Notes: a model not told the origin generated them from the sequence alone. 64,000 bases of DNA from Candidatus Saliniplasma sp. (GCA_046497075.1 JAWOGF010000050.1:17772-81771); one strand, 5' to 3'. Counted from the stretch's first letter, positions 5,543-56,419 are shown. Translations and numbers: made by a program.

Positions 5543-6166
5543 ATGGGCCGTCCCTCGATAAAATTTTATAAGACTACATCAGTTGTTTCATTGATGAACT
5601 GGATCATACTACTTCTATTTACTTTTGGGATAGTGGCCTTGGCTGAAATCGGAGATAAAACCCAGTTGATGACCATATCTCTCGCTTCAAAATACCATGT
5701 AAAACCTGTATTTTGGGGTATATTTTTAGGTATGGGTCTGATAACCGTAGTAGGGGTAGTTGTAGGTACCGTTTTATACAGCTTTATTCCCCCATATTAT
5801 GTGAAAGTTCTTGCATCACTCATCTTCATCTTTTTTGGAGTGTACTCGCTCTACCAGGAAGAAACCGAAGATGAAGAAGATTTCAGCAGTAAAAAGATAT
5901 TCACTACTTCTTTTTTTCTAGCACTGGTGGCTGAATTCGGGGATAAAACTCAACTGGTTGTCATAGCGCTCACCGCACAGTATGAAGCTCCCATCGTTGT
6001 ACTTCTCGGAGCCCTAGCAGGTCTCGGTCTAGTTATCGGTATCGGTGTTGCCTTCGGTTCAAAATTGACCGAGATTGTAGAAAAAGAAAAGATCGAACTG
6101 GCGGCCTCGCTGTTATTCATCATCGTCGGAGTCATCTCCCTGGTAAATACTCTTTTTTGGGGATAA
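5543..6166 (+). CDS. UPF0016 (GDT1/TMEM165) family putative Ca2+/Mn2+:H+ antiporter
   Basis: It has two E-x-G-D-K-T-Q repeats ('LAEIGDKTQLMTISLA' and 'VAEFGDKTQLVVIALTA') in a 6-TM protein of 207 aa. This is the diagnostic duplicated motif of PF01169. Confidence 0.8.
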   Translation: MGRPSIKFYKTTSVVSLMNWIILLLFTFGIVALAEIGDKTQLMTISLASKYHVKPVFWGIFLGMGLITVVGVVVGTVLYSFIPPYYVKVLASLIFIFFGVYSLYQEETEDEEDFSSKKIFTTSFFLALVAEFGDKTQLVVIALTAQYEAPIVVLLGALAGLGLVIGIGVAFGSKLTEIVEKEKIELAASLLFIIVGVISLVNTLFWG

Positions 6167-6197
6167 ATAATATTATTTCGCTCTGTTATCACCAATC

Positions 6198-6734
6198 ATG
6201 TCTAGGTGGAAATGTAAAGATAGCAGGGTGGTAGCAACCTCTACGTTGTTTACACTCAGAGAAGATGACGTGGTACTAAAGAACGACGTTGAAAAAACAT
6301 ACACTATATTGGATATGCCAGATTTTGCTGGTGTCATCCCCGTCATAGATGATAAACTGGTTATGATCAAGAACTATCGTTACCCAATCGATGAGATGGT
6401 ATTGGAACTACCTGCGGGACTCATAGATGAGGGTGAAAAACCTATCGATACTGCTAGACGGGAACTAAAAGAGGAAACTGGATACGTTTTGAAGGATGCT
6501 GAGAAAATCATAGAATATCACCCAATAGCTAGCCTGAACACTCAAACAGCTCACCTTTTCCTAGGGGAAGCAGAAGAGGGGGCATCGGTGAATAGGGATA
6601 TCGGGGAGGATATCGAAGTTGAATTAATTCCGATCAAAAAAGTATATGAGATGTTAAGAAAAAAAGAGATATCACACCCCCACACTATCATAGCCCTATT
6701 TTACTGTGAAAATGTGTTATGTGAAAGAACCTGA
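6198..6734 (+). CDS. NUDIX hydrolase (ADP-ribose pyrophosphatase-like)
   Basis: The Nudix box is 'GLIDEGEKPIDTARRELKEETGY' (GX5EX7REUXEEXGU). Confidence 0.8.
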   Translation: MSRWKCKDSRVVATSTLFTLREDDVVLKNDVEKTYTILDMPDFAGVIPVIDDKLVMIKNYRYPIDEMVLELPAGLIDEGEKPIDTARRELKEETGYVLKDAEKIIEYHPIASLNTQTAHLFLGEAEEGASVNRDIGEDIEVELIPIKKVYEMLRKKEISHPHTIIALFYCENVLCERT

Positions 6735-6821
6735 GAATTCATGTATTTACTAAAAATAGAATATATTCCAATAAAGACCGAAAATGTTTATAGATAAAAA
6801 TTAATTTCGGAAGGCTTGTTT

Positions 6822-8180
6822 ATGGCAAAGAAGGTAAAAAGCGAGAGCGGTACTATATTTTGTTCATACTGCGGTACCGCCGTGAAAAAAGGGGACGATA
6901 CTTGTCCGAGTTGTGGAGAGGAACTAGAAGAAGAGATCGTAGAGGGAAAAGTATGTCCCGCCTGTGGAAACCCTGTTGAAAGTTTGGATGGATCATGTCC
7001 AAATTGCGGTATAGACCTATCTAAAACACCATCTGAAGCAGACCAAGACGACGAATTCCTTTCTAAACTTCTAGGATGGGGAGACGAGACGGAGGGAGAA
7101 TTAGAAAAGAAGATCGAGGAAAAACGCAAAGCAGTAGAAGTTTTTAAAAAGGTTGCTGGCGGGGAGGGAGGTAGTAAAGAAAGTAAAGAAAGTAAAGAAA
7201 GTAAAGATAGTAAAGATAGTAAAGAAAGTAAAGAAAGTAAAGATAAGAAAGAAAAAGATGAGGTCGAAGTGGAAATATCTTATGACTATATGGTCGAACC
7301 CTTCGAGAAAGTGGTAAATTCCACGGAAGAAAATCTCAACGACATAAAATCTGAAATGGTAAAAGTACGCGAGGAACTCGATGAAGCTGAGGGCAAGGAA
7401 AAAGAAAGACTTCAAGAGAAACTAAAATCATTGGAGAGCAGAAAATCAAGATTCCATAAGATAATATCCAACATCGAAGAGATGGATAGAGCCGTGGAAA
7501 GATTATTGGAAAACCAAAGAATAGAACTCGAGGAAAAACAGGAAGAGCTTAAAGACCGTATCAGAGAATTTAAAAAGGTTGTAAAAAAGAAGGATAAGGA
7601 AAGGGAAAACATCGAAGATAAGAAAAACAAACTGGAGGAAAAAGAAGAAAAACTAAAAGAGAGAGAGATGAAACTCAGCGTTTGGGAGGAAAACCTGAGG
7701 AAGAAGGAAAAGGAGTTAGAAGCTGAGGTAGGCCAATACAAAGAAAGCGAGGAGACTCTTGAAAAGATCGAGGAGGATATGCCAGAAGAGGGAAAGGTTA
7801 CCAAAGAAGAATGGTTAGAGGAACAAAAGAAGATCCAGAAAGAACTGTTCGATCTGAAAGATATGTGGGATGATGAAGAGGAAACGATAGATATCAGCGA
7901 AGACTCGATACCGGTAGTAAAAAAGAAACTTAAGGAGAAAGAAGAACTCTGGAAAAAAAAGATCAAGGACCTCAAAGAAGAGTTGGATGAAGTTCGTAAA
8001 GAAAAAGAAAAGATGAGAGAAAAAACCCTCGAGATGGATGTTAAACAAGAAGAGGTGGAGACCATATTATCCGTACTAGATGATCTACTAGGTAATTTAC
8101 CAGATGAACGTATCCATGAATTTGCAAAATCCAAGCATTTTGAACTTTATGAGAAGGTATTGGATGCTTTCGATGTATAA
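6822..8180 (+). CDS. Double zinc-ribbon plus (SKE)n low-complexity plus coiled-coil protein
   Basis: The N-terminus has 'CSYCGTAVKKGDDTCPSCG' and 'CPACGNPVESLDGSCPNCG' (two C-x2-C...C-x2-C ribbons). Then comes SKESKESKESKDSKDSKESKESKD, followed by about 300 aa of E/K/L heptad-rich sequence. ATG at 6822 is preferred over the upstream TTG. TATA-like 'TTTATAGATAAAAATT' lies about 30 bp upstream. Confidence 0.75.
   Translation: MAKKVKSESGTIFCSYCGTAVKKGDDTCPSCGEELEEEIVEGKVCPACGNPVESLDGSCPNCGIDLSKTPSEADQDDEFLSKLLGWGDETEGELEKKIEEKRKAVEVFKKVAGGEGGSKESKESKESKDSKDSKESKESKDKKEKDEVEVEISYDYMVEPFEKVVNSTEENLNDIKSEMVKVREELDEAEGKEKERLQEKLKSLESRKSRFHKIISNIEEMDRAVERLLENQRIELEEKQEELKDRIREFKKVVKKKDKERENIEDKKNKLEEKEEKLKEREMKLSVWEENLRKKEKELEAEVGQYKESEETLEKIEEDMPEEGKVTKEEWLEEQKKIQKELFDLKDMWDDEEETIDISEDSIPVVKKKLKEKEELWKKKIKDLKEELDEVRKEKEKMREKTLEMDVKQEEVETILSVLDDLLGNLPDERIHEFAKSKHFELYEKVLDAFDV
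7173..7244 (+). repeat. Perfect 9-bp tandem repeat (AGTAAAGAA/AGTAAAGAT) x8, encoding (SKE/SKD)n inside the zinc-ribbon/coiled-coil gene
   Basis: Direct reading gives eight contiguous in-frame 9-nt units. Confidence 0.85.
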
Positions 8181-8192
8181 GGAGTAATAGAC

Positions 8193-11100
8193 ATGGGACT
8201 CAGAGAAAAGGCGAAGAAGGCACTAGAAGAAGAGGAAAAAACCTCTGAAGAACTAGAAAAGGAGGAAGAAAGAGTTGAAGATCTGGAGAAAGATATAAAA
8301 GAACTGGAGGAACGCAGATCCGAACTCGAGGATATTGTAAGTGGATTAGAAGATGAAAAGGAAGGACTTGAAGAGAAGAAAAAGGAATTCGAAAATGTTA
8401 AGGAACGGATCAAAGAATCTGTTGAAAGAAAGCAGGAACTTGAAGAGAATATCCAAAAGCTTGAATCGAGATATGAAGAACTAAAATCCAAAAGAGAAGA
8501 ATTTGAAGAGTTGGCAGAAGAGTACGATGAGATTCAGCAGAAAAAGGAGAGTCTTGAAGAGGAGATCGATGAGCTACAAGGTACAAAAGATGAACTTTCG
8601 GAGAGTAAGGAGGAAGTCGAAGAATCTAAAGAAAGATTAGAAGGGGAGATCGAAGAACTGGAAAATAGAAAAGATGAACTTATAGAAAGTGAAGAAGAAT
8701 TAGAGACGGTGAAAGAAGATGTTGAAGAGCTTATACAAAAGAGAGAAACACTTGAAGAGGATATCGAGGAGTTAGAGAAGGGAAAAGAAGAACTCACGAC
8801 CTCAAAAGAGGAATTGGAGGAGAAATCAGAGAAGCTCGATAAAAGGATGAAAGAATTGGAAAAAGAAAAGGAGAGATTGGAAGAGGATAAAGGGGAGATA
8901 GAGGAACTAAAAAAGGAATTAGAAGAAAAAAGGAAGATATTAGAAGAGGAAGAGAAAAAATTCGAAGAGCGAAAGGAAGAACTAGATGGGAAAGAAAAAG
9001 ATTTAAATGAAAAAGAAAAAAGGTTACAACAGAAAGAACAAGGGTTAGAGGATAAAGAACAAGGGTTAGAGGATAAAGAACAAGATATAGATGAAAGGAT
9101 CAGCGAATTGAACGAGAGAGAGGAAGAACTCAAAAAACTCAAGAAAAGTATCGACGGTAAGAAAGGTGCTCTACAGAGATCCAAGAATAAATTGGAAGAA
9201 CAGGAAGAAAAACTGGAGGAACGGAAAAAGGAGCTTGAGAAGAAAGAAAAAGATTTGAGGGAAGAACTCAAAAAAGAACTCCTTGAAGAGAAAAAAGAGG
9301 AATTGGAATCGCTGGAGGCTTCTTTGGAAGAGAAAAGAGATGAGGAAGAACAGCTGGAAGAAAAAATACAGGATTATAGTGAGAGAATAAATGAAATAGA
9401 GGAGAGGGAAGAAGAATTAGATGAAAAAGAGGAAGAACTGAAGCAGAAGGATAATGAACTGGTGGAACGGAGTTCTCTCCTGGATGATAGGGAACAGGGT
9501 ATCGAAGAGAAAGAAGAAAAGATAGATGAAGCAGAAGAAAAGTTGGCAGAATTGGAGGACAAAGATACAAAACTGGAAGAGTGGCACGGGGAACTAGAGG
9601 ATAAAGAAGAAACATTGGATGAGAAAAAAACAGAACTAACTAATCTCGAAAAAACCCTTGAAGATAAAGAAGTGAAGATCGAAGAGAAGGAAGAGGATCT
9701 AGAAGCAAAGGAAGATAGATTATCCGAAAAAGAAAATGAACTAGAAGATAAATCAAAAGAATTAGAAGAAAGGGAAAACAAGATCGATGAAAGATTGTCG
9801 AAGGTGGAACAGAGGGAAGAAGAGATAGAAGAATTAAAGGATTCCCTCGCTAGTAAAGAAGAAGAGCTAGAATCAAGAGAAGAAAATTTAGAGGAAAAAG
9901 AAGATGAGTTAGATAGGTTAGAGGGAGATCTAGAAAAGAGGCGTCAAGAAGTAACTGATACTGAAGCAAGTCTTGAACAAAGGGAAGAAGAATTGATCGA
10001 TTGGGAAGAGGAGATAGAGGCAAGGGAGGAAGATGTATCTGAGGAAAGAACGAGGTTAGAAGAAAAAGATGATGAGTTGGACCAGAAAGAGAAGGAATTA
10101 AAAAAATTGGAAAATGAACTGGAAGATAGAGAGGAACGGTTGGAGAGTTTAGAAGACGATCTGGATGAGGTGCAAAAAGAGCTCGTAGACCGGGAAGAAA
10201 ACATAAGAACCAAAGAGAAGGATTTAGAAGAAAAGGAAGAGGAACTGCAAAATTTCGAAGCCGAGCTTCAAGGATGGGAAGATAATCTAAAATCAAAAGA
10301 GGAAGATTTGGATACAAAAGAATCCGAGCTTCAAGGATGGGAGGAGGACTTAAAGGAAAAGGAGGGTGGATTGGACACTAGAGAAGAAGCGATAAATGAG
10401 AGAGAAGTAGAGCAGGACGAACTGGAAGACACCCTACAGGAAAGAAAAGAAGAACTAGGTAAAAAAGAGAATCACCTGATCGAATGGGAAGCAGAAGTGG
10501 AAGAGAGAGAGAAAAAATTGGATGAGCTTCAGAAAGAACTTGAAGGTAAAGAAGAAAATCTAGATACTATAGAGGATGAACTAGATGAGCGAACTTCAAA
10601 GGTGGAACAGCAGGAAAAAGAGTTAGAGGATAGAGAAGAAAAGATCGATGAAAGAGAAAAGACACTCAACGAAAAAGAAGATGAATTGGACCAGAAAGAG
10701 AGCGAGATAGAAGCAGAAAGAGATGAACTGGAAGAAGAAAAAGAAGGACTGCTCCAATTACGTGAGGAACTGAATAAATTTGATGACACTCTCGATGAGA
10801 AGCAGAAAGAGTTGGAGGGTGAGAGGAGTGAATTCGAAGACAAAGTGGAGATCAAGGAAGAGGAGCTAAGAAAAGAAAGGTCGTCTCTGGAAGAGAAGAA
10901 AGAACTACTAGCTGAAAAAGAAGAAAAGTTGAGTGATCTTGAGAAAGACCTATCGCAGAGAGAGGGGCGCGTATCTAAAAAAGAGAATACTTTGGACGAA
11001 TTAAAAGAGGAGCTAGGTGAAAGAGAAAGGGAAGTAAAAGAAAGGGAGAATGGACTAGACTTACTCCAAGAGGAATTAGAGGATTGGAGAGATGAGTTAT

Positions 11101-12230
11101 CTAATAAGGAAAAAGAACTAGAAAAAGAGAAAGAAGAGCTCAGAGAAAAAGTGAAAGATCTGCAGGAAAAAGAAGCTAAAATCTCTGAAAGAGAAGAAAT
11201 GGTGGAGGAAGAGTTAGAAAAAGTTGAAAGTGAAAGGGACGAACTATCCGAGATGTGGACTAAAATTGGAAGAAAGATGGAAGATGTCGAGGGCAGGGAA
11301 GAGAAACTAGAAAAGGAGCACTCGGACTTAGTGATAAAAAAAGATGAACTGAAAAGGAAAGAAAGAGATTTGGATGAAAGGGAGGGGGTTATCGAAGAGA
11401 AGGAAAAAGAGTTGTCTAAAAAAGAGGAGGGGCTAGAAAAAGAGATAGATGAAGTGGCTAGAGAGATGGAAAAGGCCCGATCCTGGAGTCAGACCGCCCT
11501 CGACAAAGAAGAGGAACTCAAATCATGGGAGTCTGATCTAGAAGATTGGGAAGAGAAACTAGGGGATAGAAGAGAAAAGCTCGAGGAGGAACGTGATGAA
11601 ATCGAAGAACTGCTTGATGAACTGCCAAATAGGGTAGAAGAGGTCGAAGAGAGGGAAGAAGAAGTAATAGAAAGGGAGAAAGAGTTGGATGAGGAAAAAG
11701 AAAAGTTAAAGGCCATTAAAACAGATTTATCAGAAAGGGAAGAAGAACTTGAAGAAGAAAAAGAGCACGTTCAGGAGATCAAAGAAAGTGCATTGAACAT
11801 GATGCAGTATGCAAAATCAAAGAAAGCTCGGGAAGATAAAAAACTGAGAGAAGATATCCAGCAGGAACGTGAGAAATTGGAAAGAGAGAGAAGAAAACTC
11901 GAAGAAGAATTGGCTCAGAAGGAAAAGAATTTAAAGCAAAAGGATAAGAAGCTGGAAAAGAAGAAAGAAAGATTGATGGAAAAGGCTGAAGCCTTGGAAG
12001 AAAAGGAAAAGGAAGTTGAACAGAAACAGCAGAATATAAAAGATGAGAGAGATAAACTTTCTGAGATGTGGTCGGAGATTGAAGAGGAATCGATGAAGAT
12101 GGAGGAATTCAAAGAGCGGGAAAGGGAGATCGAAGAACGTGAGAAAAAGTTAGAGGAAAAAGAAAATCAGTTAGAAAAGAAGAAAGAAAGGATCGAAAAG
12201 ATGAAAAAGCATCTAGATGATCTTCTGTGA
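8193..12230 (+). CDS. Giant (1345 aa) E/K-rich continuous coiled-coil protein
   Basis: The sequence is heptad-patterned throughout (…LEEKEKELEEK…). There is no recognisable globular, ATPase or TM domain. The ORF starts 12 bp after the previous ORF and is probably co-transcribed. Internal near-duplicate segments exist (for example 'QGLEDKEQGLEDKEQ' and 'ELQGWE…ELQGWE'). Confidence 0.8.
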   Translation: MGLREKAKKALEEEEKTSEELEKEEERVEDLEKDIKELEERRSELEDIVSGLEDEKEGLEEKKKEFENVKERIKESVERKQELEENIQKLESRYEELKSKREEFEELAEEYDEIQQKKESLEEEIDELQGTKDELSESKEEVEESKERLEGEIEELENRKDELIESEEELETVKEDVEELIQKRETLEEDIEELEKGKEELTTSKEELEEKSEKLDKRMKELEKEKERLEEDKGEIEELKKELEEKRKILEEEEKKFEERKEELDGKEKDLNEKEKRLQQKEQGLEDKEQGLEDKEQDIDERISELNEREEELKKLKKSIDGKKGALQRSKNKLEEQEEKLEERKKELEKKEKDLREELKKELLEEKKEELESLEASLEEKRDEEEQLEEKIQDYSERINEIEEREEELDEKEEELKQKDNELVERSSLLDDREQGIEEKEEKIDEAEEKLAELEDKDTKLEEWHGELEDKEETLDEKKTELTNLEKTLEDKEVKIEEKEEDLEAKEDRLSEKENELEDKSKELEERENKIDERLSKVEQREEEIEELKDSLASKEEELESREENLEEKEDELDRLEGDLEKRRQEVTDTEASLEQREEELIDWEEEIEAREEDVSEERTRLEEKDDELDQKEKELKKLENELEDREERLESLEDDLDEVQKELVDREENIRTKEKDLEEKEEELQNFEAELQGWEDNLKSKEEDLDTKESELQGWEEDLKEKEGGLDTREEAINEREVEQDELEDTLQERKEELGKKENHLIEWEAEVEEREKKLDELQKELEGKEENLDTIEDELDERTSKVEQQEKELEDREEKIDEREKTLNEKEDELDQKESEIEAERDELEEEKEGLLQLREELNKFDDTLDEKQKELEGERSEFEDKVEIKEEELRKERSSLEEKKELLAEKEEKLSDLEKDLSQREGRVSKKENTLDELKEELGEREREVKERENGLDLLQEELEDWRDELSNKEKELEKEKEELREKVKDLQEKEAKISEREEMVEEELEKVESERDELSEMWTKIGRKMEDVEGREEKLEKEHSDLVIKKDELKRKERDLDEREGVIEEKEKELSKKEEGLEKEIDEVAREMEKARSWSQTALDKEEELKSWESDLEDWEEKLGDRREKLEEERDEIEELLDELPNRVEEVEEREEEVIEREKELDEEKEKLKAIKTDLSEREEELEEEKEHVQEIKESALNMMQYAKSKKAREDKKLREDIQQEREKLERERRKLEEELAQKEKNLKQKDKKLEKKKERLMEKAEALEEKEKEVEQKQQNIKDERDKLSEMWSEIEEESMKMEEFKEREREIEEREKKLEEKENQLEKKKERIEKMKKHLDDLL

Positions 12231-12231
12231 C

Positions 12232-13221
12232 CTATTTCGCTCTTTCGATCATAAACTCTACCAGTGCCATCAAAATATCTTTATATTCACTTTCTGGTAA
12301 AAATTGTATTTCTTCTTTTGCACCGTTGGCGTATTCTTCTGCCAATCTGCTACAATATTCAATAGAATTATTTTTTTCTAACAGTTCGATAGCTTCTAAC
12401 ACAGCTTTCTGATCACTTTCACCATCTAATATTTCGATCAAGCGACGTTTATCCTCATCCCCTAGATGTTCTAAAGCATGGATCACCATCAATGTCCTCT
12501 TCCCCGCCCTGATATCACTTCCAACCGGCTTTCCTAGATCTGTTTCCTCTCCCATAAGGTCCAGATAATCATCCTGGACCTGGAAGGCGATCCCCATCTT
12601 ACGGGCATATTCGCCCATGCGTTCTATCTTCTCATCAGGAGCGCCGGCGACTATAGCACCAGACCTAGCAGCCGCCTGGAAGAGGTAACTGGTCTTTTTC
12701 TCGATCATCTCGATAAACTCTTCTTCTGTTATATCGAAGGTCTTTTCAAACCTCATATCCTCCTCTTGCCCCTCTGCCACTTTTAGGACCGCATGAGATA
12801 TCTCAAATAGGACCCGTTTTATCTTTAAGGGCTCAACATCCATATTCGAGATCAATCGGAAAGATAGGGCAAAAAGGGCATCTCCCACATTTATAGCAGT
12901 CGACAGACCTTCTTTTTTATGCAGTGTTTCTCTACCTCGTCTAAGATCGTCATCATCCATTATATCGTCATGGACTAACGTAAAATTATGGATCAATTCT
13001 ATGGAAAGTCCCGGGATCATACCATCCTCCTCATCACCACCTAAAGCACCACAAGAGACCATAGCCAGAAAAGGTCGAAGTTTTTTTCCACCAGCCTGAG
13101 GATACCATGCCATGTTTTTCCAGATTATATGCTCCCTATCCTTGAATAGAGCATCGATCTCACCGTCTACGATCTTTCTCCTCTTTTCTATCTCAGATAT
13201 TAGATCCGTCATCATCTTCAC
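12232..13221 (-). CDS. idsA: Geranylgeranyl diphosphate synthase (short-chain trans-prenyl diphosphate synthase)
   Basis: FARM 'LVHDDIMDDDDLRRGRET' and SARM 'VQDDYLDLMGEE' motifs are present. The polyprenyl synthase fold is of typical length. Confidence 0.85.
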   Translation of the reverse strand: MKMMTDLISEIEKRRKIVDGEIDALFKDREHIIWKNMAWYPQAGGKKLRPFLAMVSCGALGGDEEDGMIPGLSIELIHNFTLVHDDIMDDDDLRRGRETLHKKEGLSTAINVGDALFALSFRLISNMDVEPLKIKRVLFEISHAVLKVAEGQEEDMRFEKTFDITEEEFIEMIEKKTSYLFQAAARSGAIVAGAPDEKIERMGEYARKMGIAFQVQDDYLDLMGEETDLGKPVGSDIRAGKRTLMVIHALEHLGDEDKRRLIEILDGESDQKAVLEAIELLEKNNSIEYCSRLAEEYANGAKEEIQFLPESEYKDILMALVEFMIERAK

Positions 13222-13275
13222 ATAAAGTGGTAATCATTCGAGATATATAAGAAAAACGCTTGATCTACCCTTGAT

Positions 13276-14322
13276 CTATACAGAACTTATCCAATCCCTC
13301 AGTTCCCCAGTGACTATCATCTTCCTATCCTTCAACTCTTCGATGTTTGAACAACCCTGCAGGAACATTGAGACCTTCAGTCCGTGTATCACGTGCTTTA
13401 GATATCTAACTACTTCATCCTTACCTTTTTTAACGTGAGGTAGGACTCCTCCGGCGATGCCTGTCAACTCTGCACCAAGGGAAAGGGCTTTCGATACTTG
13501 TACCCCATTTCTTATCCCTCCAGTAGAAATTATTGGTATCTCCACCGCACTGCTGCATTCAAGGGTTGATACCGGTGTTGGTATCCCCCAATCCCAGAGT
13601 TCCTTAGCTAATGACTTTTTATGGCTATCTTCCTCTCTAAAGTACTCCACGGCGGAAAATGAGGTACCGCCCATACCGCCTACGTCTAAGGACTTAACTC
13701 CCGTATCACAAAGCTTTCGAGCAACATCGCTAGATAACCCTGCACCTGTTTCTTTAGCTATCGTCGGCACATGGTGAGATAATTCAGACAGAGCTTCCAG
13801 TAGCCCTTTTGCGTTTGTATCCCCCTCGGGCTGAACGACCTCTTGGAGATAATTAAAATGAACCGCAAGTAGATCACCATCGATCATCTCTAAAGCTTTT
13901 TTGGCGTGTTCGATCCCATAAGCTTCATCATCATCCTGTTCTATGAGCTGAGGAGCCCCGAGGTTACCAAGAACTAAAGGGGGATAGTGATCCCTTATAA
14001 CCTCATAGGACCTTCTCAATTTCTTATCTTCTAGAGCTGCCCTTTGGCTGCCAACACCGAAGGGGATACCTATTTCTTCAGCGGCTTCAGATAACCTAGC
14101 ATTTATCTTTTCAGCACCGCCGTAGCCGCCAGTTATAGCTGATATCATTATAGGAGCTGATAATCCAGTACCCAAAAAATCTACGGTTGTATCTATCTCT
14201 TCAAAATCTATTTCTGGTGCAGAGTTATGGTAAAATTTGAGCATGCCCCAGTAATCTTTATCTATCTCAACGTCCTCCTTTAAACATATGTCCATATGGT
14301 CCTCTTTTCGGGTTTCTATCAT
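13276..14322 (-). CDS. fni: Isopentenyl-diphosphate delta-isomerase type 2 (FMN-dependent)
   Basis: The TIM-barrel IDI2 signature is 'ISAITGGYGGAEKINARLSEAAEEIGIPFGVGSQRAAL'. The glycine-rich FMN site is 'GGMGGTSF'. Confidence 0.9.
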   Translation of the reverse strand: MIETRKEDHMDICLKEDVEIDKDYWGMLKFYHNSAPEIDFEEIDTTVDFLGTGLSAPIMISAITGGYGGAEKINARLSEAAEEIGIPFGVGSQRAALEDKKLRRSYEVIRDHYPPLVLGNLGAPQLIEQDDDEAYGIEHAKKALEMIDGDLLAVHFNYLQEVVQPEGDTNAKGLLEALSELSHHVPTIAKETGAGLSSDVARKLCDTGVKSLDVGGMGGTSFSAVEYFREEDSHKKSLAKELWDWGIPTPVSTLECSSAVEIPIISTGGIRNGVQVSKALSLGAELTGIAGGVLPHVKKGKDEVVRYLKHVIHGLKVSMFLQGCSNIEELKDRKMIVTGELRDWISSV

Positions 14323-15071
14323 CTTTTAACCTCTGTATAGATCGTCTCTTTTTTTAAGATCAAACGTTTCAAACGGCCTTCTTCCGTCCCATTTATAACA
14401 AATGTTGGGCAGTGCTCGGAAAGCTCCAACATCTTTTCAACCTTTCCGTTCATCCCGCCTGTGACGTCTATGGAGCCATCTACGCCCGGGATGTCTTTTT
14501 CGGTTAAAGGATACATCTTTTCCGTGAATGTCTTTACTAATTCTTTATCTTTATAGATCCCATCAACGTTGGTGACGAAGATCGCCCTATCTGCTCTTTC
14601 ACCAAGAGCCAACATCAGATCATCCCCGGAACAGATCGTTACTCCTCTCTCATCATCCAAAGCAACATCACCGAAAGTGACGGGAACGTTACCTAAATCT
14701 AGATATCTATTAAAAACATCATTATCTATATCCAATAGATCTCCGTCATCGTATCTTGTTACGACCCCACCAGGTATAGAAATAGGCCACAGTTCTTTTT
14801 TGATCATCATCTCGATTATACGGTTGTTCAATACTCTCATATCATTTTGAACTCTAGAAGTCGCTTCGCATATACTTTTAGGATCCTCACTATTTAGGCC
14901 AAATTTCTCTGCGCCTGGGTGGCCAAAACTACCACCACCATGTACGACAATTAATTCATCTGTAACAGAGGAGGCCATCTCTTGGATCAATCTTTGGGTT
15001 CTCCTGCGTTTAAAAGTATATGGTAAATTCTTATCTGAGATTACACTGCCGCCTAGTTTGATCAAAATCAA
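14319..15071 (-). CDS. ipk: Isopentenyl phosphate kinase (amino-acid-kinase fold)
   Basis: 'MILIKLGGSVISDK…VVHGGGSFGH' is present. The apparent TTG start overlaps the stop of IDI2 by 4 nt. This is the archaeal alternative mevalonate pathway. Confidence 0.85.
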   Translation of the reverse strand: MILIKLGGSVISDKNLPYTFKRRRTQRLIQEMASSVTDELIVVHGGGSFGHPGAEKFGLNSEDPKSICEATSRVQNDMRVLNNRIIEMMIKKELWPISIPGGVVTRYDDGDLLDIDNDVFNRYLDLGNVPVTFGDVALDDERGVTICSGDDLMLALGERADRAIFVTNVDGIYKDKELVKTFTEKMYPLTEKDIPGVDGSIDVTGGMNGKVEKMLELSEHCPTFVINGTEEGRLKRLILKKETIYTEVKR

Positions 15072-49795: not shown

Positions 49796-52700
49796 TTAAA
49801 AAGGTTTTATTTTCTTTATGGATCTTACGATATCGTGCTCTATAGATGTCGCTATCTGGTTTATAGATAAGTGCTCTTTTACATCGGTATCACTATGTAA
49901 GGACACTATGTTATCTCTGTGCAATTCCCTTATATGATCTCTGTTTAATGTCTCTATATCCTGTTTGTTCGTAGTCTGTGTCTGATCGACTGTTAGATCC
50001 GATAGCACATCTTCCATCACTGCATTTCTATCCTCTGAGCTTGATATCGCTTCGAAACCGAATCCAAAGTATATCACATCGTGTTCCCCACTGTATTCTA
50101 CCGCTGCTCCCTGAGGGCCTGTCCAATAGCCGCCAGGATATGAAGCGTATTCACTTCCGCCGTTTATAGGGTCGATCTCATCTGGATAGTCCTGGTTATC
50201 TGCACCGTCTCCACCTGATATACTGTACTCCTTGCCGTTCATGTTCACTGCTGTTTCACCCGAATCGTCTGCATTGAACGAAGCGTGTAGATAATCGTTG
50301 TAGAACGTATTATCACCGTTATCATCTAGATGGTAACCTATATCCTGTCCTGAGATGAACAGCTTACCGCCGTTATCTAGATAGTTCGAGATTATCCCTT
50401 GTTCAGTCGATGTAATAGTGTTCTGGTAATCGTCACCTGTGAACCATATAACTGCTGTGTAGTCCTGTAAGTCTCCCTGCGATAATTCAGAAGACTGCTT
50501 TAATTCATAACCGTAGCCCGCTGCCTCAACGGCTTCAGTATAATACGATTCGTAGCTATCGCCGTCATCATCGTCTACTATCAGAATCCCTTGAGTTGAA
50601 ACTTCTTCGAGTGTGAAGTTAGTCCATGTGGTTTCACTAGAATTCACACCAAACGACTTGCTTTCACTCTCATAACCGTCTTTCTCTGCGGTTATCTGCA
50701 TGTCTAATTGGTCGAATTCCGTTATGCCTTCCATCTTGTAATGTCCATCTGAATCTGTGTGATCACTGTGATCTGTTCCTTCTACATAGACATGTGCATC
50801 ATCTACTGCAACACCATAATCGTCTTCAACGTAACCCTCTGCTATTCCTGGTTCTGGTTCTTCAATCACTAGTGTTATGTCTTCATAATGGTTCTCAGTT
50901 ATCGTGATACCTTCAACAGTGTCGGTTTTCTCGTCATCGTCTGCCTTTACTGTATACGTGCCCGGGTTCACCTTGAACTCGAATGGGGCTTCCATACCTA
51001 GGCCGGATTGTGTCTCGTCTAACACATTGTCTTGGTCATCATAAAGTGTTACATTTGCTCCGGTAACCGGTTTGTTCATTCCATTAAGATCTTCCTCGAA
51101 GACTCCTCCTATCACAGATGTGTTCTGCAACATTGTAACGTTCATAAATTTGGTCTTAGATTCCTCTATGCTGAAATTTACAGTAGTATCCTGATGATAC
51201 TCAGCTTTCAACTGCATCGTATTGTTGCCTGAAGTTACGTTCATACTGTATTCGCCGTGATAATCTGTCTCTGTCTGATTATCTCCAATTGTTATCTGTG
51301 CTTCCTTGACTTCCTCACCAGTATTATCCGTTACGTATCCTTTTATGATGGCTATTCCTTCCATCGTTTCATTGAGCCATCTTGTATCCCCTTGTACGAT
51401 TCCAACCTGTTTAGTAACATCTATATAACCCGATACCGAAAATGTAACATTGTATGTTCCTTCCGAGATGTCCTGGTACCGATAATAACCACTCCTGTCT
51501 GTCTGTTTCTCACCGTATCCTGGCAAAGATACTGTAGCAGATATCGGATCACTATCACTGTTTTTCACATATCCTTTTAGTGTACCGTTTCCTAGTGGAG
51601 GTAAAACCGCATCTACTTCTACGGTTTCACCGACTTCCACCGTGATATTTTCCTTGTTTATAGTTTCTCTTCCTTCCTTGGAGAACTCCAACATTTCAAC
51701 CGAGTCCCTCGCTTCCATAAAATATGTACCGTCTTCATCTGTTGTAGTCTCGTTGATCACTATATCTGAAGGGAATCCAGGCGCCAATGCTCTGACCGTT
51801 ACACCAGCTAAACCGTTGGTTTGATCAGAACTTTCCCAAGCAGTTCCTTTAATTGTCCCCTTGGTTTGTTCTTCCTCCATCTCTATCGTGACATCCTTAA
51901 ATTCACCTGTCTCAAGTGGTGATATCTCTTTCACCGTCGTTAAATAACCGTCTTTACTCACATGCACATTTATCTGTTTACCTGCAGGGACATGTCTAAT
52001 AGGTTCTCTTTCAATCGCACTGATCTCCGTCATGAACTGTTCTTCACCGGAAACATACTGGTATACCGTCCCTGATACATGATCTAGTTCATCACCGGAT
52101 TGATCTACAACGGTCATATTGATCTGTGGTGGTTCTTCTACTTCTGGTTTAACATCGTTTAACATCTCTTCCATGAAGTCATTCCTTGTGACCTCATCAT
52201 CTATAGCTTCGTATCCGAATGCTAGATAGACTAGATTGTAATCACCATCATAAGTCACACCTGCAGTTTTATCTGAGCCGTATGATGCGTATTCGGTAGC
52301 CCCATTGACCGGATCGATCTCTGAAGGATACTGCTGATTATCAGCTCCATCTCCTCCGGATATACCGAATGAATATCCTTGTCCATTAACGTCCCTTGAG
52401 TCTACAGCATCGGTAACAAAATCTGCTTTCAGATAATCAGAATAGAATGATGTATCCTTAATATCGTATCCAATATCTTGTCCAGATATTATCAGATTCC
52501 CTCCTTGATCCATATAGCTTGCTAGATTGTCCTGGTCTGTTGACGTCAATGTAGTCTGGTAATCGTCACCTGTAAACCATATCACTACCGGATAGGAATC
52601 TAACCTATCTAATGAGGGGGATCCTTGATTTGGAACATCCCATTCAGTGTATGACCAATCGCTCTTTTCAAGAGCATCTGTATAGTAACTCTTGTATGAT

Positions 52701-55700
52701 GACGTTTTATCACCAGCATCTTCTACCAAAAGGACATCCTGCTGCACGTCTCCATCTTTACTAAGCAGATAGAAATCTTGTGTTGCCACCTCTCCGTTTT
52801 TCAGTGTGTGAATCCTCTCCGCAGTGTAATATGATTCTCCGTCTAACTTAATATGCACGTCATTACTTTCTGTTATGTCTATTTCGCCTATCTTGTAATT
52901 CCCGTTTTGATCCGTAGTACTGGAAAACTCGTTGTCTGCTGTTACCGTTATTCCTTCTAGCGGATCTCCATTTGTATCATATACATGACCTTCTACTGTT
53001 GCATGGTCTTTACTTGTAATTGTGTCTTTCACTAATTTATTTGCGCCTTGTTTATCGTCTAAAGTGAAGGTGCCTCTTCCGGATTCAAAGCCATCTTTAC
53101 TTGTAGAATAATGATATTCACCGATTTCCATGTCTTCTATAACAATTTCTCCATTAGAATCCGTGTAATACTCATCATCGGTCTCGATAACATATACCTT
53201 GGCCTGTTCGACAGGTTCCATGTTGCCATCTTTTTTGGTTTCCAATCTAAATGTTACATCTATCGGTTTGAACACTCTAAAATCATAGTCCTGGTCTGAT
53301 TCATTGGATATTACTGTGCGATTTACAGAATTATAATATCCTTCAGCTTCCGCACGGCCACTGTATACTCCTTTTTCAAGAGAAACTGAATATCTACCAT
53401 TATCATCAGTCACTGTAGTTTTCGAACTTATATGAACTGTTGAATCACTCACTGAGTTCTCTACTTCTTTTGTCCCTTCTGATGTATCTTCCTCAGTAAG
53501 ATGGTATACGGTACCTGTGACGTTGAATGTTTTACTCTCTAAAGTCATATTCTGCTTAGTCAACCCGTTCACATCTACCGTAACAGCGGTGTTAAGAAAA
53601 TCCTCATCGTCTGCTACTATCGTATACTGTCCATCTTCTACATCGAAGTAGTAAGAACCGTCTTCACCAGATGTTGTAGAGTTTACTACGTTTCCATCTT
53701 GTTTTAATGTGACCGTTGTGTCTCTGATAGCAACACCGTTTTCATCGACCGTGTACCCTTTTATTCCATTCAGGGTGGTTTGACCGCCTACACCTAGATC
53801 GCTTAAAACTGTATCCATAACATCTGTTCTGTCTTGAGATGTGGATATTGCCTCAAAACCAAATGAGAAGTAGACTAGATCGTAGTCACCGCTGTATGAA
53901 ACCGCTGAAACCTCGTCGCTATCATATGACATATACTGAGAAGCACCGTTAACAGCACTTATCGCCGACGGGTACTGTTGATTATCTGCTCCATCTCCAC
54001 CGGATATACTGAATGACATATCTTGACCAGATATACTTCTAGAGCTAACACTATCGGTCTCAAAATTAGCTCTCAAGTAATTCCCATAGAATGAAGAATC
54101 GCCAATATCATAACCTATATCCTGACCAGTTACGAACAGTTTACCACCGTTATCCATGTATTGTTGTAGATTAGATTGATCTGTAGAAGTTAGGGTTGAA
54201 TCGTAATCATCACCTGTGAACCATATCACTGCATCGTATTGACCTAGAGTGCTCGAGGACGGACTTCCGTCTGAAGACACTGTCCATGTATCATAATCAT
54301 ATCCGCTTAGAGCGTCCGTGAAGTAGCTTTCGTAGGTCTTACCGTCGTCATCATCGACTACGAGTATACTAGATGATGATGAGGAATCCACTGATATTTC
54401 ACTCTGATATGGCTCGAAATTATGTTTGTTGACTGTTATCTTAACATCTTCTGTAGTCTTAACTGTCAATTCAGCATGACCGGATGAGTCTGTTTTCTCT
54501 GTACTGAATACATTATCACCGGTTACGGTCACTCTTGCATCAGCTACTGCATTACCACTGGAATCTGTCACATCAACAGAAAGTGTATCTTGCCCAGCAT
54601 CTATATTGCTGGTATGTGAGACCGAGAATGTGTCAGGAGTGTCAGTCCATATCGGTACTGCTGGATCGCCCATCAAGTTGAACATAAAGTAGTTGTCTCT
54701 ATATCCTGATCCAGATGATGGAACTCCATTATCTTGGATATAATCTACTTTAGAATCCATTAAGGCACTTCCCTGTCTATAGTTCGATTCATTGAATATC
54801 TGTTCATTGAATCTGTAATTTAATCCTGCATCTCCAGTTCCACCCTGATTGTAATTAGAATCGTATACGAACCCCCATGAAATTCTTGAAGCTCCAACGA
54901 AACCTATAGCATACTTTTCGACCGCAGCTTCAGCTAGAGAATCTCCTAAATCAGAATCAAACTCACCAACACTACAGGCATGAGCGAACATCAGTGGCAT
55001 CTTTTGACCATTTGTTGGTCGTTCGTCTGCTTCCCAATAATGCCCACTTCCAACAGTGCTGTTAACTGATCTGCTAATACCACTACTAGATCCGTGACCT
55101 ATCATATTAACGAATGTTTCTCCTTGGCCTATAGATTCATTAAAATCTGATTTCTTCAAACCATCATCGATGTCTGGGCCGATCTGATCAGGTTTTTCAG
55201 GATTCGCCGTATGAAGATGATCAAAAGTATATCCTTGGTCTTCGAAGAACATATCGTTCATATATTCTGTCCAATTATAGGTTCTCAATTTGGTCTTCAG
55301 TGTAGGCGTTCTATCCAAAATTCCGGATCCAGCAACCACACGATTAAACCAGTCACCAGAAGGGGGGTTCTTCTCGTATGTTAATATGTTATCAACCATA
55401 TCATTCATTTCCTGTTCCGTATTTGCTGGTAATCTTCCAACATCCGCTTCAGGATAGAAGTCTTCTTCTCCTTCTTCACCAAACTTACCATCTTTGTCAG
55501 TATCCCAGTTGCCCGTCAATTCCCCATAAAGGAAATCGCTAGCTAGATCTCCGTCATCATCATGGTTACGTAAGTATGCTGTTGGAACAGTATCCACATC
55601 ACCAGCCATCAGAACATAATCTATACCGTACTTGATGTAATAATCTTGTATGCATCTTCTAACCTTTATGAAATCCTCTCCATCACCGTACTCAGAATAG

Positions 55701-56419
55701 ATTTGATCCACGGTAACGACTTCGGTTCTCATGCCGTCTTCTTCTCTCCACTCGACGAGTGGTTCGATTTCTTCAGTGTAATTATCATGAGTTATTATCA
55801 AGTAATCCACTGATGACTCCGCCGCATCATCATTTGTAGTTCTGACCGAATATTCTCCGAAATTTTGTATCGTCTGTTCCATCTCGTAAGTCTCTTCATG
55901 TACTACTTGTGTATCCTGTCCATTGACGTATTCAACAAATATTTCAGCACTGTCAGCATAATAACCTGATTCTTTAACAGGCCTTATTGTCACTGTGATC
56001 ACATTTCTTCCTCTCCAGTTACCCTGTGTATATACTCTCTCCGTAAAGTCATCCGCTGTAAAATCACCTACTTCGCTTTCTTCACCGTTCAATGGTTCGG
56101 GGGCCTTTGCATCAGGTACGTCACTTACATCGATCTTGCCTTTTAGGTTGTACTCGATATTCACGTCTTTAACCTCTGCATCACGTGGTAATTCAAATGT
56201 GTACCCCTTCTGAGGCAACTTTTTATCACCAGGTAATCCGTACAAAGAAAATCCATCCATCTTTACGTAGTCCCCATCCCTCTGAGGCGATGGAAACTCC
56301 ACTTGAAATGACACTTCTTCATTATCCGTTGTAATCCCCACGGTTGCCGCAGGAATCAGGGAAAGAAGCATCATCCCTATCATTAGAGTTATTACTATCT
56401 TTTTATTCATTAATACCAC
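49796..56419 (-). CDS. Giant (2207 aa) secreted gingipain-like (peptidase C25) cysteine protease with a thrice-repeated about 250-aa module and multiple Ig/CarboxypepD_reg-like beta-sandwich domains
   Basis: The signal peptide is 'MKIVITLMIGMMLLSLIPAATVG'. The C25-like catalytic region is 'DYLIITHDNYTEEIEPLVEWREEDGMRTEVV…YVLMAGDVDTVPT…DVGRLPANT', with a candidate His in 'MIGHGSSSG' and Cys in 'FAHACSVGEF'. Three copies follow the pattern '[IL]VVDDDDG.[ST]YESY[FY]T.A…VIWFTGDDY..T[LI]TSTDQ…GG.LF[IV][ST]GQDIGY…ISGGDGADNQ.YP…NG…YASY…FGFEAI'. Confidence 0.8.
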   Translation of the reverse strand: MVLMNKKIVITLMIGMMLLSLIPAATVGITTDNEEVSFQVEFPSPQRDGDYVKMDGFSLYGLPGDKKLPQKGYTFELPRDAEVKDVNIEYNLKGKIDVSDVPDAKAPEPLNGEESEVGDFTADDFTERVYTQGNWRGRNVITVTIRPVKESGYYADSAEIFVEYVNGQDTQVVHEETYEMEQTIQNFGEYSVRTTNDDAAESSVDYLIITHDNYTEEIEPLVEWREEDGMRTEVVTVDQIYSEYGDGEDFIKVRRCIQDYYIKYGIDYVLMAGDVDTVPTAYLRNHDDDGDLASDFLYGELTGNWDTDKDGKFGEEGEEDFYPEADVGRLPANTEQEMNDMVDNILTYEKNPPSGDWFNRVVAGSGILDRTPTLKTKLRTYNWTEYMNDMFFEDQGYTFDHLHTANPEKPDQIGPDIDDGLKKSDFNESIGQGETFVNMIGHGSSSGISRSVNSTVGSGHYWEADERPTNGQKMPLMFAHACSVGEFDSDLGDSLAEAAVEKYAIGFVGASRISWGFVYDSNYNQGGTGDAGLNYRFNEQIFNESNYRQGSALMDSKVDYIQDNGVPSSGSGYRDNYFMFNLMGDPAVPIWTDTPDTFSVSHTSNIDAGQDTLSVDVTDSSGNAVADARVTVTGDNVFSTEKTDSSGHAELTVKTTEDVKITVNKHNFEPYQSEISVDSSSSSSILVVDDDDGKTYESYFTDALSGYDYDTWTVSSDGSPSSSTLGQYDAVIWFTGDDYDSTLTSTDQSNLQQYMDNGGKLFVTGQDIGYDIGDSSFYGNYLRANFETDSVSSRSISGQDMSFSISGGDGADNQQYPSAISAVNGASQYMSYDSDEVSAVSYSGDYDLVYFSFGFEAISTSQDRTDVMDTVLSDLGVGGQTTLNGIKGYTVDENGVAIRDTTVTLKQDGNVVNSTTSGEDGSYYFDVEDGQYTIVADDEDFLNTAVTVDVNGLTKQNMTLESKTFNVTGTVYHLTEEDTSEGTKEVENSVSDSTVHISSKTTVTDDNGRYSVSLEKGVYSGRAEAEGYYNSVNRTVISNESDQDYDFRVFKPIDVTFRLETKKDGNMEPVEQAKVYVIETDDEYYTDSNGEIVIEDMEIGEYHYSTSKDGFESGRGTFTLDDKQGANKLVKDTITSKDHATVEGHVYDTNGDPLEGITVTADNEFSSTTDQNGNYKIGEIDITESNDVHIKLDGESYYTAERIHTLKNGEVATQDFYLLSKDGDVQQDVLLVEDAGDKTSSYKSYYTDALEKSDWSYTEWDVPNQGSPSLDRLDSYPVVIWFTGDDYQTTLTSTDQDNLASYMDQGGNLIISGQDIGYDIKDTSFYSDYLKADFVTDAVDSRDVNGQGYSFGISGGDGADNQQYPSEIDPVNGATEYASYGSDKTAGVTYDGDYNLVYLAFGYEAIDDEVTRNDFMEEMLNDVKPEVEEPPQINMTVVDQSGDELDHVSGTVYQYVSGEEQFMTEISAIEREPIRHVPAGKQINVHVSKDGYLTTVKEISPLETGEFKDVTIEMEEEQTKGTIKGTAWESSDQTNGLAGVTVRALAPGFPSDIVINETTTDEDGTYFMEARDSVEMLEFSKEGRETINKENITVEVGETVEVDAVLPPLGNGTLKGYVKNSDSDPISATVSLPGYGEKQTDRSGYYRYQDISEGTYNVTFSVSGYIDVTKQVGIVQGDTRWLNETMEGIAIIKGYVTDNTGEEVKEAQITIGDNQTETDYHGEYSMNVTSGNNTMQLKAEYHQDTTVNFSIEESKTKFMNVTMLQNTSVIGGVFEEDLNGMNKPVTGANVTLYDDQDNVLDETQSGLGMEAPFEFKVNPGTYTVKADDDEKTDTVEGITITENHYEDITLVIEEPEPGIAEGYVEDDYGVAVDDAHVYVEGTDHSDHTDSDGHYKMEGITEFDQLDMQITAEKDGYESESKSFGVNSSETTWTNFTLEEVSTQGILIVDDDDGDSYESYYTEAVEAAGYGYELKQSSELSQGDLQDYTAVIWFTGDDYQNTITSTEQGIISNYLDNGGKLFISGQDIGYHLDDNGDNTFYNDYLHASFNADDSGETAVNMNGKEYSISGGDGADNQDYPDEIDPINGGSEYASYPGGYWTGPQGAAVEYSGEHDVIYFGFGFEAISSSEDRNAVMEDVLSDLTVDQTQTTNKQDIETLNRDHIRELHRDNIVSLHSDTDVKEHLSINQIATSIEHDIVRSIKKIKPF

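Follow-up and report, generated by a model that had tools for sequence, protein, structure and literature searches.

Two consecutive genes located on a 64,000-nucleotide (nt) stretch of DNA from Candidatus Saliniplasma sp. (GCA_046497075.1 JAWOGF010000050.1:17772-81771, in the following referred to as the window) encode a zinc-ribbon adaptor protein (A) and a giant acidic heptad-repeat protein (B). Judged from sequence comparison, the conserved core of this pair is the junction between both proteins, namely the C-terminal helical module of A and the N-terminal peptide MGLREKAKK of B, which is portable between very different proteins. The operon structure, its conservation, the heptad chemistry of B and the strict adjacency of module and MGLR motif across different cargo proteins and two domains of life were observed directly. 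From these features, we infer physical docking of A and B, the oligomeric state of B and a cellular role. As the leading interpretation, held with a confidence just short of an even chance, it is proposed that A docks on the N-terminus of B, that B forms a parallel rod of up to ~200 nm held together by a leucine seam, and that the complex serves as a cytoplasmic scaffold or tether. The features on which this proposal is centred are as follows (aa, amino acids; ORF, open reading frame).

6822-8180, plus strand: gene A, ORF for a 452-aa adaptor with two zinc ribbons, an amphipathic helix, an SKE linker, long helices and a C-terminal module
8193-12230, plus strand: gene B, ORF for a 1345-aa acidic heptad rod
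8046-8177, plus strand: C-terminal three-helix module of A, aa 409-452 (...ILSVLDDLLGNLPDERIHEFAKSKHFELYEKVLDAF..), based on PF27359 in homologues, an own hidden Markov model (HMM) and AlphaFold2 (AF2)
8193-8231, plus strand: N-terminal signature MGLREKAKKALEE of B, aa 1-13, based on consensus and conservation

According to the proposed mechanism, A and B would share one transcript and assemble into a structural complex of two parts. B would adopt a long helical rod, in which the Leu/Ile/Val seam at position d, basic residues at g and acidic residues at e would favour parallel, in-register, two-stranded pairing, so that B would effectively represent an extremely long leucine zipper with charged 'a' positions. 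The three-helix module of A would dock onto the basic B peptide MGLREKAKK, probably while B leaves the ribosome, since the two genes lie only 12 nt apart. The double zinc ribbon of A and its amphipathic FLxxLLxWG helix would remain as a free head attaching the rod to a target. In this form, the assembly would function as a cytoplasmic scaffold or tether and not as an SMC-type machine.

A preliminary description of the window had already named two adjacent genes with a 12-bp spacer and had assigned two C4 zinc ribbons and an (SKE)n linker to A. Both ORFs and the 12-nt spacer were recovered, as were ribbons and linker (see below), and the gene pair, for which a check in related genomes had been suggested, was present in every informative related locus. 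The conserved operon is real; however, the C-terminal module of A and the MGLREKAKK motif of B, which represent the conserved core according to the comparative data, had been overlooked.

The module-MGLR junction across genomes

The module of A comprises ~45 aa with the pattern LDxLLxxLPxxxIxxFxxSxxFxxYxK (also rendered as LDxLLxxLPxxxIxxFxxSxxFxLYxK) and belongs to the Pfam family PF27359 ('TP_0179'), named after an uncharacterised ORF of Treponema pallidum. This family is precomputed at the C-termini of the A homologues P0001-P0006 and of distant homologues; membership of the A protein of the window was judged through these homologues and through the own HMM, which was built from 22 diverse modules and scored the window module with 71.9 bits. 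Within 134 module proteins, the module was located at the extreme C-terminus in 130 cases and was sometimes duplicated. A word-indexed search with the 49-aa module profile, too short a query, returned a single 38-aa match. The module was also detected in minimal proteins of 81-111 aa consisting of zinc ribbon and module, in acidic-repeat proteins of Leptospiraceae, and on the cytoplasmic tail of a transmembrane (TM) surface protein featuring TSP3 and CBM96. Moreover, in two Thermoplasmatota membrane proteins (P0114 and P0163) featuring bacterial TSP3 repeats and a CBM96 domain, the cytoplasmic N-terminus bears two TP_0179 modules in tandem, suggesting that the module can link surface proteins to its binding partner.

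All giant partners start with MGL[RK][DE][KR], and the N-terminal consensus of B derived from 31 unique sequences reads M-G-L-R-[DE]-[KR]-A-[KR]-K-x-L-[ED]-E. In a reciprocal test, metagenome data were scanned for DNA encoding MGLR[DE]KAK, yielding at least 80 loci; 56 of the matches were internal or random, and three more that are preceded by a module were classed as internal or short. Among the matches listed, every start-like MGLR[DE]KAK ORF that has 200 nt or more of sequence ahead of it (16/16) is preceded by a module-ending ORF on the same strand, mostly at a distance of 4-17 nt and with upstream module E-values of 1e-16 to 1e-22, and the three start-like ORFs without an upstream module actually start with MGF.. 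or MGLS... Junction spacers across loci range from 1 to 17 nt. Thereby, the loci show the co-occurrence pattern of a docking pair, with a C-terminal element followed by the N-terminal element of the next gene's product while the protein bodies vary. Furthermore, the mean net charge amounts to -3.6 for the module and +2.7 for the MGLR motif, and synonymous variation at the junction indicates protein-level selection on MGLR. The simplest reading would be that the C-terminal module binds the N-terminal peptide of the next gene's product, analogous to the docking logic of polyketide synthases and nonribosomal peptide synthetases (PKS/NRPS).

Rods are by far the commonest proteins bearing the MGLR motif; the others combine a rod with DUF835 or represent T2SSE/PilB ATPases and GAF-like proteins. 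DUF835 follows directly after the MGLR motif and precedes the rod in the loci L040, L034 and L020 (8082-13400), with an E-value of 2.6e-30 in L040 and L034; this domain is regarded as an inactivated KaiC-like (iKaiC) signalling output domain (PMC5847659). For the L082 protein, a weak GAF match was obtained. In L065, L076 and L049, MGLRDKAK is followed by a zinc ribbon and a T2SSE/PilB-type ATPase (E=1.4e-29). The L076 locus (5693-13962) represents a complete archaeal type IV pilus operon encoding a prepilin peptidase, two pilin-like proteins, a module protein, the MGLR-zinc ribbon-PilB protein and two PilC proteins; its module protein is a 304-aa coiled coil, the gene of which ends 1 nt before that of the PilB-type ATPase. 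The bacterial example originates from the spirochaete Turneriella sp. (Leptospiraceae; L145:5001-8531), where a 634-aa acidic module protein is followed after 3 nt by a 540-aa MGLRERA protein with a weak GAF_3 match. The 634-aa protein contains uncharacterised 'EPIALSxDELDxIL' repeats. In L062, a three-gene chain was observed, in which a module-ending protein precedes a 250-aa protein (from 879-1631) with MGLR head, coiled coil and module tail, followed by an MGLR rod; the middle protein suggests the existence of chain-forming adaptors. L146 encodes a 111-aa mini-A protein, i.e., ribbons and module without coiled coil, ahead of a rod, with GDT1-NUDIX synteny as in the window.

Close homologues of A were found in 11 species-level genomes, all of them metagenome-assembled genomes (MAGs) of uncultured Thermoplasmata, several from soda-lake sediments. 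The study from which part of the MAGs originate links its own Thermoplasmata bins to the salt-loving uncultured KTK 4A group (PMC6146748), an affiliation that the individual MAGs may share. The genes flanking the pair, encoding isopentenyl-phosphate kinase (IPK), type-2 isopentenyl-diphosphate (IPP) isomerase (IDI) and geranylgeranyl diphosphate (GGPP) synthase, are archaeal as well. The host, for which a DPANN-like symbiont had been considered, is accordingly a Thermoplasmata archaeon, an assignment resting on MAG labels (11/11 relatives) and these neighbours. In nine of the 11 genomes, a B protein of 1289-1352 aa is encoded 11-18 nt after A; in the tenth, B is frameshifted, and in the eleventh the contig ends. 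Close orthologues share 46-69% (A) and 37-59% (B) identity with the window proteins, and five full-length A homologues were recorded at 41-49%. With an exhaustive A profile search, 23 cluster representatives were returned at E<=1e-30, a number that rose to 91 and 2139 when the threshold was relaxed to E<=1e-10 and E<=1e-3, respectively; the A architecture was present in 56 of 164 proteins, comprising the matches listed, earlier homologues and cluster members. Named relatives of A are annotated only as 'hypothetical' or 'zinc ribbon domain-containing' and originate from Thermoplasmata. In viral contigs, no relatives were found. An exact look-up of B in public assemblies yielded no entry. A word-indexed search with full-length B gave no match at E<=1e-30, but its 8000 candidates were taken up by E/K words, so that this outcome does not speak for the absence of relatives.

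Distant A-like genes residing in unrelated neighbourhoods are still followed by a giant partner (1402 aa in L018, 1772 aa in L020, 1544 aa in L024), and the same applies to L022 (partial) and L023 (with a 100-N scaffold gap). The interrupted B genes, L014:9291-14221 (frameshift) and L023:4420-8251 (100-N gap), probably represent assembly problems in a purine-rich gene and not pseudogenes. In L018, the rod contains an inserted zinc ribbon, and its gene is followed after 20 nt by a third gene (7912-9249); the 445-aa product of the latter, probably located at the surface, gave a right-handed beta-helix match and possesses a hydrophobic segment at either terminus. Literature on TP0179, SpiroCoCo and cytoskeletal or coiled-coil proteins of Thermoplasmata was screened; no published functional study of TP0179 and no description of the A-B pair or of TP_0179-MGLR coupling were found, and this coupling apparently has not been described before.

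Heptad chemistry and conservation of the B rod

B is composed of 33.5% Glu, 15.2% Lys, 12.3% Leu, 7.5% Asp and 6.6% Arg. Its net charge of -258 corresponds to -19 per 100 aa versus -2 to -9 for the other soluble, moderately acidic proteins of the window. The protein contains no Walker A motif, no Cys and a single Pro, and no TM or signal segment was detected (highest Kyte-Doolittle 19-aa window -0.43), in agreement with the preliminary description, which had noted the absence of SMC heads and TM segments. Hydrophobic residues account for 20.7% of B (~1.45 per heptad), and their autocorrelation at lag 7 reaches 0.59 versus 0.00 +/- 0.026 in shuffled sequences (~23 standard deviations), with ~0.03 at lags 3 and 4. 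By means of an own segmentation analysis, 1236 residues were assigned to 10 segments in register, including unbroken runs of 428, 223 and 182 residues. No super-repeat above the heptad was found in the charge, polar and Trp tracks. The following rod features were recorded.

9552-10835, plus strand: longest unbroken heptad register, aa 454-881, 428 residues, ~64 nm, with 97% occupancy of the single hydrophobic position
10128-10187, plus strand: mid-rod site RLESLEDDLDEV, aa 646-665, among the most conserved 15-aa windows in 10 orthologues
11781-11846, plus strand: non-heptad island KESALNMMQYAKSKKAREDKKL, aa 1197-1218, top conservation in B, 67% invariant
12180-12227, plus strand: C-terminal end motif ..KKKERIEKMKKHLDDLL, aa 1330-1345, based on conservation

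Within the heptad, the first position (p0) is hydrophobic (L/I/V) in 98% of cases, +1 and +2 are acidic, +3 is occupied by K/R in 58% and by hydrophobic residues in 21%, and +4 by Glu in 48% and by hydrophobic residues in 14%. Thus, the heptad periodicity of a canonical coiled coil is present, whereas its two mainly hydrophobic positions a and d are not. The earlier view of B as a pure coiled coil holds with respect to a heptad rod; the classical E/K a/d type was not recovered. The rule of one hydrophobic residue per heptad is common to all 10 orthologues and to distant homologues with only 19-23% Glu. Since it is kept in these less charged proteins, it represents a family trait and not a halophilic or salt adaptation.

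When Leu is placed at d, K/R falls on g and D/E on e, resulting in 66 attractive and 22 repulsive g-to-e' pairs; for g and the following 'a', 80 pairs are attractive and 19 repulsive. Compared to shuffled sequences, an excess of opposite charges was observed at i,i+5 (z=2.0), with none at i,i+3 (z=-0.7) or i,i+4 (z=-1.6). A g/e charge pattern of this kind characterises parallel dimers in register and would cause repulsion in an antiparallel fold-back, for which reason B is read as parallel and leucine-zipper-like. B may represent a parallel coiled coil similar to a leucine zipper, albeit marginal and of very great length, extending over ~200 nm if fully helical, in line with the 150-200 nm estimated beforehand.

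Both termini of B belong to the four 15-aa windows with the highest conservation in the 10 orthologues. A break of the register at 1200-1236 coincides with the conserved island, where conservation peaks at 1203-1218, and the island is kept in the distant L018 homologue as QSALSLMKYAKS. At the C-terminus, RxxxMKKHLDxLL is invariant in close orthologues, with YLDRMKEHLSSIL as the L018 counterpart. In total, B features 142 invariant columns in addition to discrete conserved islands. Distant homologues of 1400-1770 aa carry net charges of only -57 to -141 and have kept the heptad seam, the length and the end motifs.

An assembly artefact of repeats, which had been named as a possible objection, does not apply. 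The DNA of the B gene is non-repetitive, with only a diverged (64-85%) 21-nt periodicity, and its synonymous codon use is mixed and matches that of other genes in the window. These findings and the near-equal length of the orthologues in independent assemblies show that B is not an assembly artefact. As previously assumed, the minus-strand ORFs covering the locus, featuring 36-50% Ser, are frame artefacts.

Operon layout, protein A and neighbouring genes

The remaining features of the operon and of protein A are listed below.

6778-6793, plus strand: BRE/TATA-like promoter element CCGAAAATGTTTATAG, ~30 nt 5' of the A start codon
8181-8184, plus strand: Shine-Dalgarno sequence GGAG inside the A-B spacer, read from the sequence
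6861-7007, plus strand: double zinc ribbon, CxxC-x10-CxxC at aa 14-31 and aa 45-62, based on Pfam, conservation and model
7053-7088, plus strand: amphipathic motif EFLSKLLGWGDE, aa 78-89, based on conservation
7173-7254, plus strand: disordered (SKE/SKD)n linker, 9-nt tandem repeat detected by Tandem Repeats Finder (TRF)
7281-8030, plus strand: helical region of A, aa 154-403, based on AF2 and a lag-7 autocorrelation of 0.34

Based on the orthologue alignment, A starts at the ATG at 6822 (MAKK...) and not at the upstream TTG at 6816. Its stop codon TAA (8178-8180) is followed by the 12-nt spacer GGAGTAATAGAC (8181-8192) and the ATG of B at 8193. A GGAG/GGTG Shine-Dalgarno sequence is kept ahead of the B start in eight aligned loci. 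The promoter core CCGAAAAnGTTTATAG is invariant across six loci, the A proteins of which are only 46-69% identical. Based on consensus, CCGAAAATGTTTATAG was predicted to represent an archaeal promoter giving rise to a near-leaderless A transcript; a near-leaderless first gene and a Shine-Dalgarno-led second gene would correspond to the usual archaeal operon layout.

Protein A matched Zn_ribbon_3 (48.8 bits, cut-off 27, E=3.9e-13) and DZR (33.9 bits, cut-off 27.3, E=3.4e-8), both above the gathering thresholds of these Pfam models and placing A in the double zinc ribbon family. The ribbon cysteines are C14/C17/C28/C31 and C45/C48/C59/C62, and all four Cys residues of ribbon 2 are invariant in the orthologue alignment. 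In the adjacent motif EFLSKLLGWGDE, residues L80, L83, G85, W86, D88 and E89 are invariant in close homologues, and FLxRLLxWG is recognisable in distant ones; the motif is a candidate partner- or membrane-binding helix. The linker is encoded by the repeat AGTAAAGAA (period 9, 9.1 copies, 93% matches) and corresponds to a gap in every orthologue aligned, which indicates a recent, probably length-variable expansion.

An AF2 model of A built from six family members reached a predicted local distance difference test (pLDDT) score of 73.5 and showed the ribbons as beta-hairpins, a helix at 72-112, the disordered linker (pLDDT 30-36), helices within 154-403 and the module at 409-449. The helical region comprises H154-188, H192-319 (128 residues, pLDDT ~90), H328-348 and the basic helix H363-403 (net +5), and the module consists of H409-424, H428-435 and H438-449. 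Since the helical region is missing from the mini-A homologue P0036, it acts as a spacer. No TM or signal segment was detected in A (top Kyte-Doolittle 19-aa window 0.24). Comparison of the A model with the PDB by means of Foldseek gave a best match of E=0.8, and PDB sequence and fold searches revealed no relative. Two matches were rejected as generic heptad similarity: the long helix of influenza HA2 (residues 39-134), aligned to A profile positions 119-213 (A aa ~150-245) with ~25 bits and E ~4e-5, and the DC-SIGNR neck obtained in the PDB sequence search, a repeat artefact.

Downstream of the pair, only one base lies between the stop codon of B (12228-12230) and that of the GGPP synthase gene running towards it on the minus strand (12232-12234), leaving no room for separate terminators. 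The GGPP synthase, type-2 IPP isomerase and isopentenyl-phosphate kinase genes (12232-15071, minus strand) constitute an archaeal isoprenoid-lipid cluster that is syntenic with the A-B pair in the closest clade only. Elsewhere in the window, a 2204-aa acidic ORF with a hydrophobic N-terminus and a net charge of -13 per 100 aa (49796-56410, minus strand) probably encodes a giant secreted or surface protein, and a very acidic 723-aa ORF was located at 61574-63745. No further module or MGLR genes were found within the window, nor any tRNA or Rfam features anywhere in its 64 kb.

Alternative explanations and comparison with known systems

Several observations weigh against the docking and rod model. 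The strict adjacency of both elements could reflect ancient gene fission or a translational-coupling constraint. A single-sequence AF2 model of B(146-1345) reached a pLDDT of 55.6 with many non-helical breaks, so that only a mostly helical structure can be read from it. With one hydrophobic residue per heptad and ~50% Glu at 'a', the dimer interface of B would be very weak, and a net charge of -258 causes strong self-repulsion; the protein might be unpaired, paired only at high salt, or dependent on a basic partner. Furthermore, the flanking genes differ between lineages and provide no functional clue, with the IDI2/IPK synteny in the closest clade as the only constant.

The docking step could also serve another purpose, in that module adaptors bring any MGLR-tagged client (rod, PilB, iKaiC/DUF835, GAF) to a common site, e.g., the membrane or a pilus-like machine, making A-B an accessory of a surface, secretion or signalling apparatus. 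The occurrence of the same junction within the complete type IV pilus operon, the signalling output domain DUF835 (PMC5847659) after MGLR in some rods, the weak GAF matches of other clients and the module on the cytoplasmic tail of the TM/TSP3/CBM96 surface protein are in line with such a recruitment. However, rods are the predominant client, and no pilus, secretion or signalling gene was found near the pair in the window or in most rod-type loci. This explanation appears unlikely; it overlaps in part with the scaffold or tether model, sharing the docking step and differing in the cellular role. Somewhat less likely still is that adjacency is merely a relic of gene fission or a coupling constraint and that both proteins cooperate without module-peptide contact, e.g., by pairing along their helices. 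The very short spacers of 1-17 nt would fit, as would the helical region of A, which shows a lag-7 signature like B and the basic helix of which could bind the acidic rod. Selection on MGLR at the protein level, as deduced from the synonymous variation, argues against a relic; moreover, the mini-A protein lacking the long helix still possesses zinc ribbons, module and rod partner, the junction persists with clients lacking a coiled coil (PilB, GAF-like), and no fused module-MGLR polypeptide exists among the 134 module proteins.

Regarding B itself, an ER/K-type single alpha-helix (SAH), acting as monomeric spring or spacer, is considered improbable. Its very high E/K/R content and few hydrophobic residues per heptad resemble B, and it is known that SAH domains are often mistaken for coiled coils by the respective predictors (PMC5812594). 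The dense i,i+3/i,i+4 network of opposite charges and the absence of a hydrophobic seam, by which SAH domains are recognised (PMC5812594), were not found in B: opposite-charge pairs at these distances occur at 0.16-0.17 per residue versus 0.20-0.21 for like-charge pairs, a model SAH shows 0.69 opposite and 0 like pairs at i,i+4 as compared to 0.16 and 0.21 in B, and neither distance is enriched over shuffles (see above). In addition, B comprises 68% charged or N/Q residues versus ~80% in SAHs, and its strict, 98%-occupied heptad seam of up to 428 residues favours supramolecular pairing according to published work on SAHs (PMC5812594). A headless scaffold, either SMC/Rad50-like or nucleoid-associated, with zinc ribbons on DNA, a role also considered in the preliminary description, is very improbable. 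The zinc ribbons of A and NCBIfam and PADLOC matches of B to SMC, ASRP, Rad50, JetC and LmuB would be compatible with it, but these matches cover coiled-coil arms only and remain far under the cut-offs (SMC 154 bits vs 567, ASRP 150 vs 300). B possesses neither Walker A nor hinge, and the absence of Cys precludes a zinc hook; its g/e charges disfavour the antiparallel fold-back of SMC arms and its overall charge would repel DNA, all of which makes a nucleoid or SMC-like role unlikely. A PADLOC defence system was likewise rejected as a candidate, the models having matched SMC-like arms only. Least credible is that B represents a polyanionic cation buffer or storage protein, or else a non-functional low-complexity or assembly artefact. 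The charge of B, outstanding among the soluble window proteins, would suit a polyanion, yet distant homologues are far less charged and have nevertheless kept seam, length and end motifs; the invariant columns and discrete islands contradict both variants, and non-repetitive DNA, native codon usage and many independent assemblies contradict an artefact. Conservation has largely refuted these readings already. Of the roles originally suggested, a cytoskeletal or tethering function of A-B remains a plausible candidate.

The internal architecture of Thermoplasmata, as that of other uncultured archaea, is very poorly known. As a rod of ~200 nm is comparable to the length of a small archaeal cell, B would be a concrete candidate for a cytoskeletal or tethering element. 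A leucine-only heptad with charged 'a' positions, maintained over more than 1200 residues and in deep lineages, challenges the usual a/d rule and makes B a natural test case between coiled coil and single alpha-helix. Moreover, the junction provides the uncharacterised TP_0179 family, also present in spirochaetes, with a specific, testable function and connects coiled-coil adaptors with the ATPase of a type IV pilus; if it is a true docking pair, it would represent a compact, portable tag for ordered protein assembly. A bolder generalisation, regarded as doubtful, is that TP_0179-type module and MGLR[DE]KAK peptide may constitute an unrecognised head-to-tail docking code in archaea and bacteria, stringing the proteins of consecutive genes together, possibly co-translationally, and that the B family may be a new class of prokaryotic cytoskeletal rod of ~200 nm, the leucine-only heptad of which would be unlike any characterised coiled coil.

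Among known systems, EEA1 and the golgins combine a zinc-binding head with a rod of ~200 nm; these are eukaryotic single polypeptides with canonical coiled coils, and their likeness to the zinc head and rod of A-B is an analogy only. Leucine zippers of the bZIP type, i.e., parallel dimers, resemble B in Leu at every d, basic g, acidic e and g-to-e' salt bridges. They extend over ~30-35 residues with roughly half of the 'a' positions being hydrophobic, whereas B comprises ~1236 heptad-registered residues, with 'a' only 14% hydrophobic and ~50% acidic. ER/K SAH domains share with B the extreme E/K/R content, the long helix and the frequent mis-calling as coiled coil; unlike these, B lacks the i,i+3/i,i+4 salt-bridge network and possesses a strict hydrophobic seam. 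SMC, Rad50 and the archaeal ASRP (Sph) proteins are similar in their long E/K-rich helical arms, and some archaeal SMC-like proteins influence cell shape (PMC10869688). In contrast to them, B is devoid of ATPase heads, hinge and zinc hook, and its charge register predicts a parallel arrangement.

Concerning the junction, the docking domains of PKS/NRPS provide a parallel: there, a short helical domain at the C-terminus of one protein is matched by an N-terminal element of the next gene's protein, which fixes the order of assembly (PMC1994986, PMC8251938). The A-B junction and the three-gene chain of L062 mirror this logic, although with unrelated sequences and in a non-enzymatic context, and the docking of A and B is putative. 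The closest functional analogues of the pair, similar to B and A in size and overall logic, are coiled-coil proteins of the Scy/FilP and crescentin type. Scy features a 51-residue repeat. A giant protein of 1326 aa, it is built almost throughout from a non-canonical coiled-coil repeat, cooperates with a smaller partner that is likewise a coiled coil, and needs no nucleotide-binding domain (PMC3718342). Sequence homology of these proteins to B was not detected (Pfam Rod_CreS 19.5 bits versus a cut-off of 100). Unlike Scy/FilP, B is strictly heptad-based with one hydrophobic position, has a partner equipped with zinc ribbons and a docking module, originates from an archaeon and is a candidate filament former. 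The A-B pair belongs with the prokaryotic coiled-coil-rich structural proteins, among which it is unusual in its leucine-only heptad and its portable module-MGLR junction.

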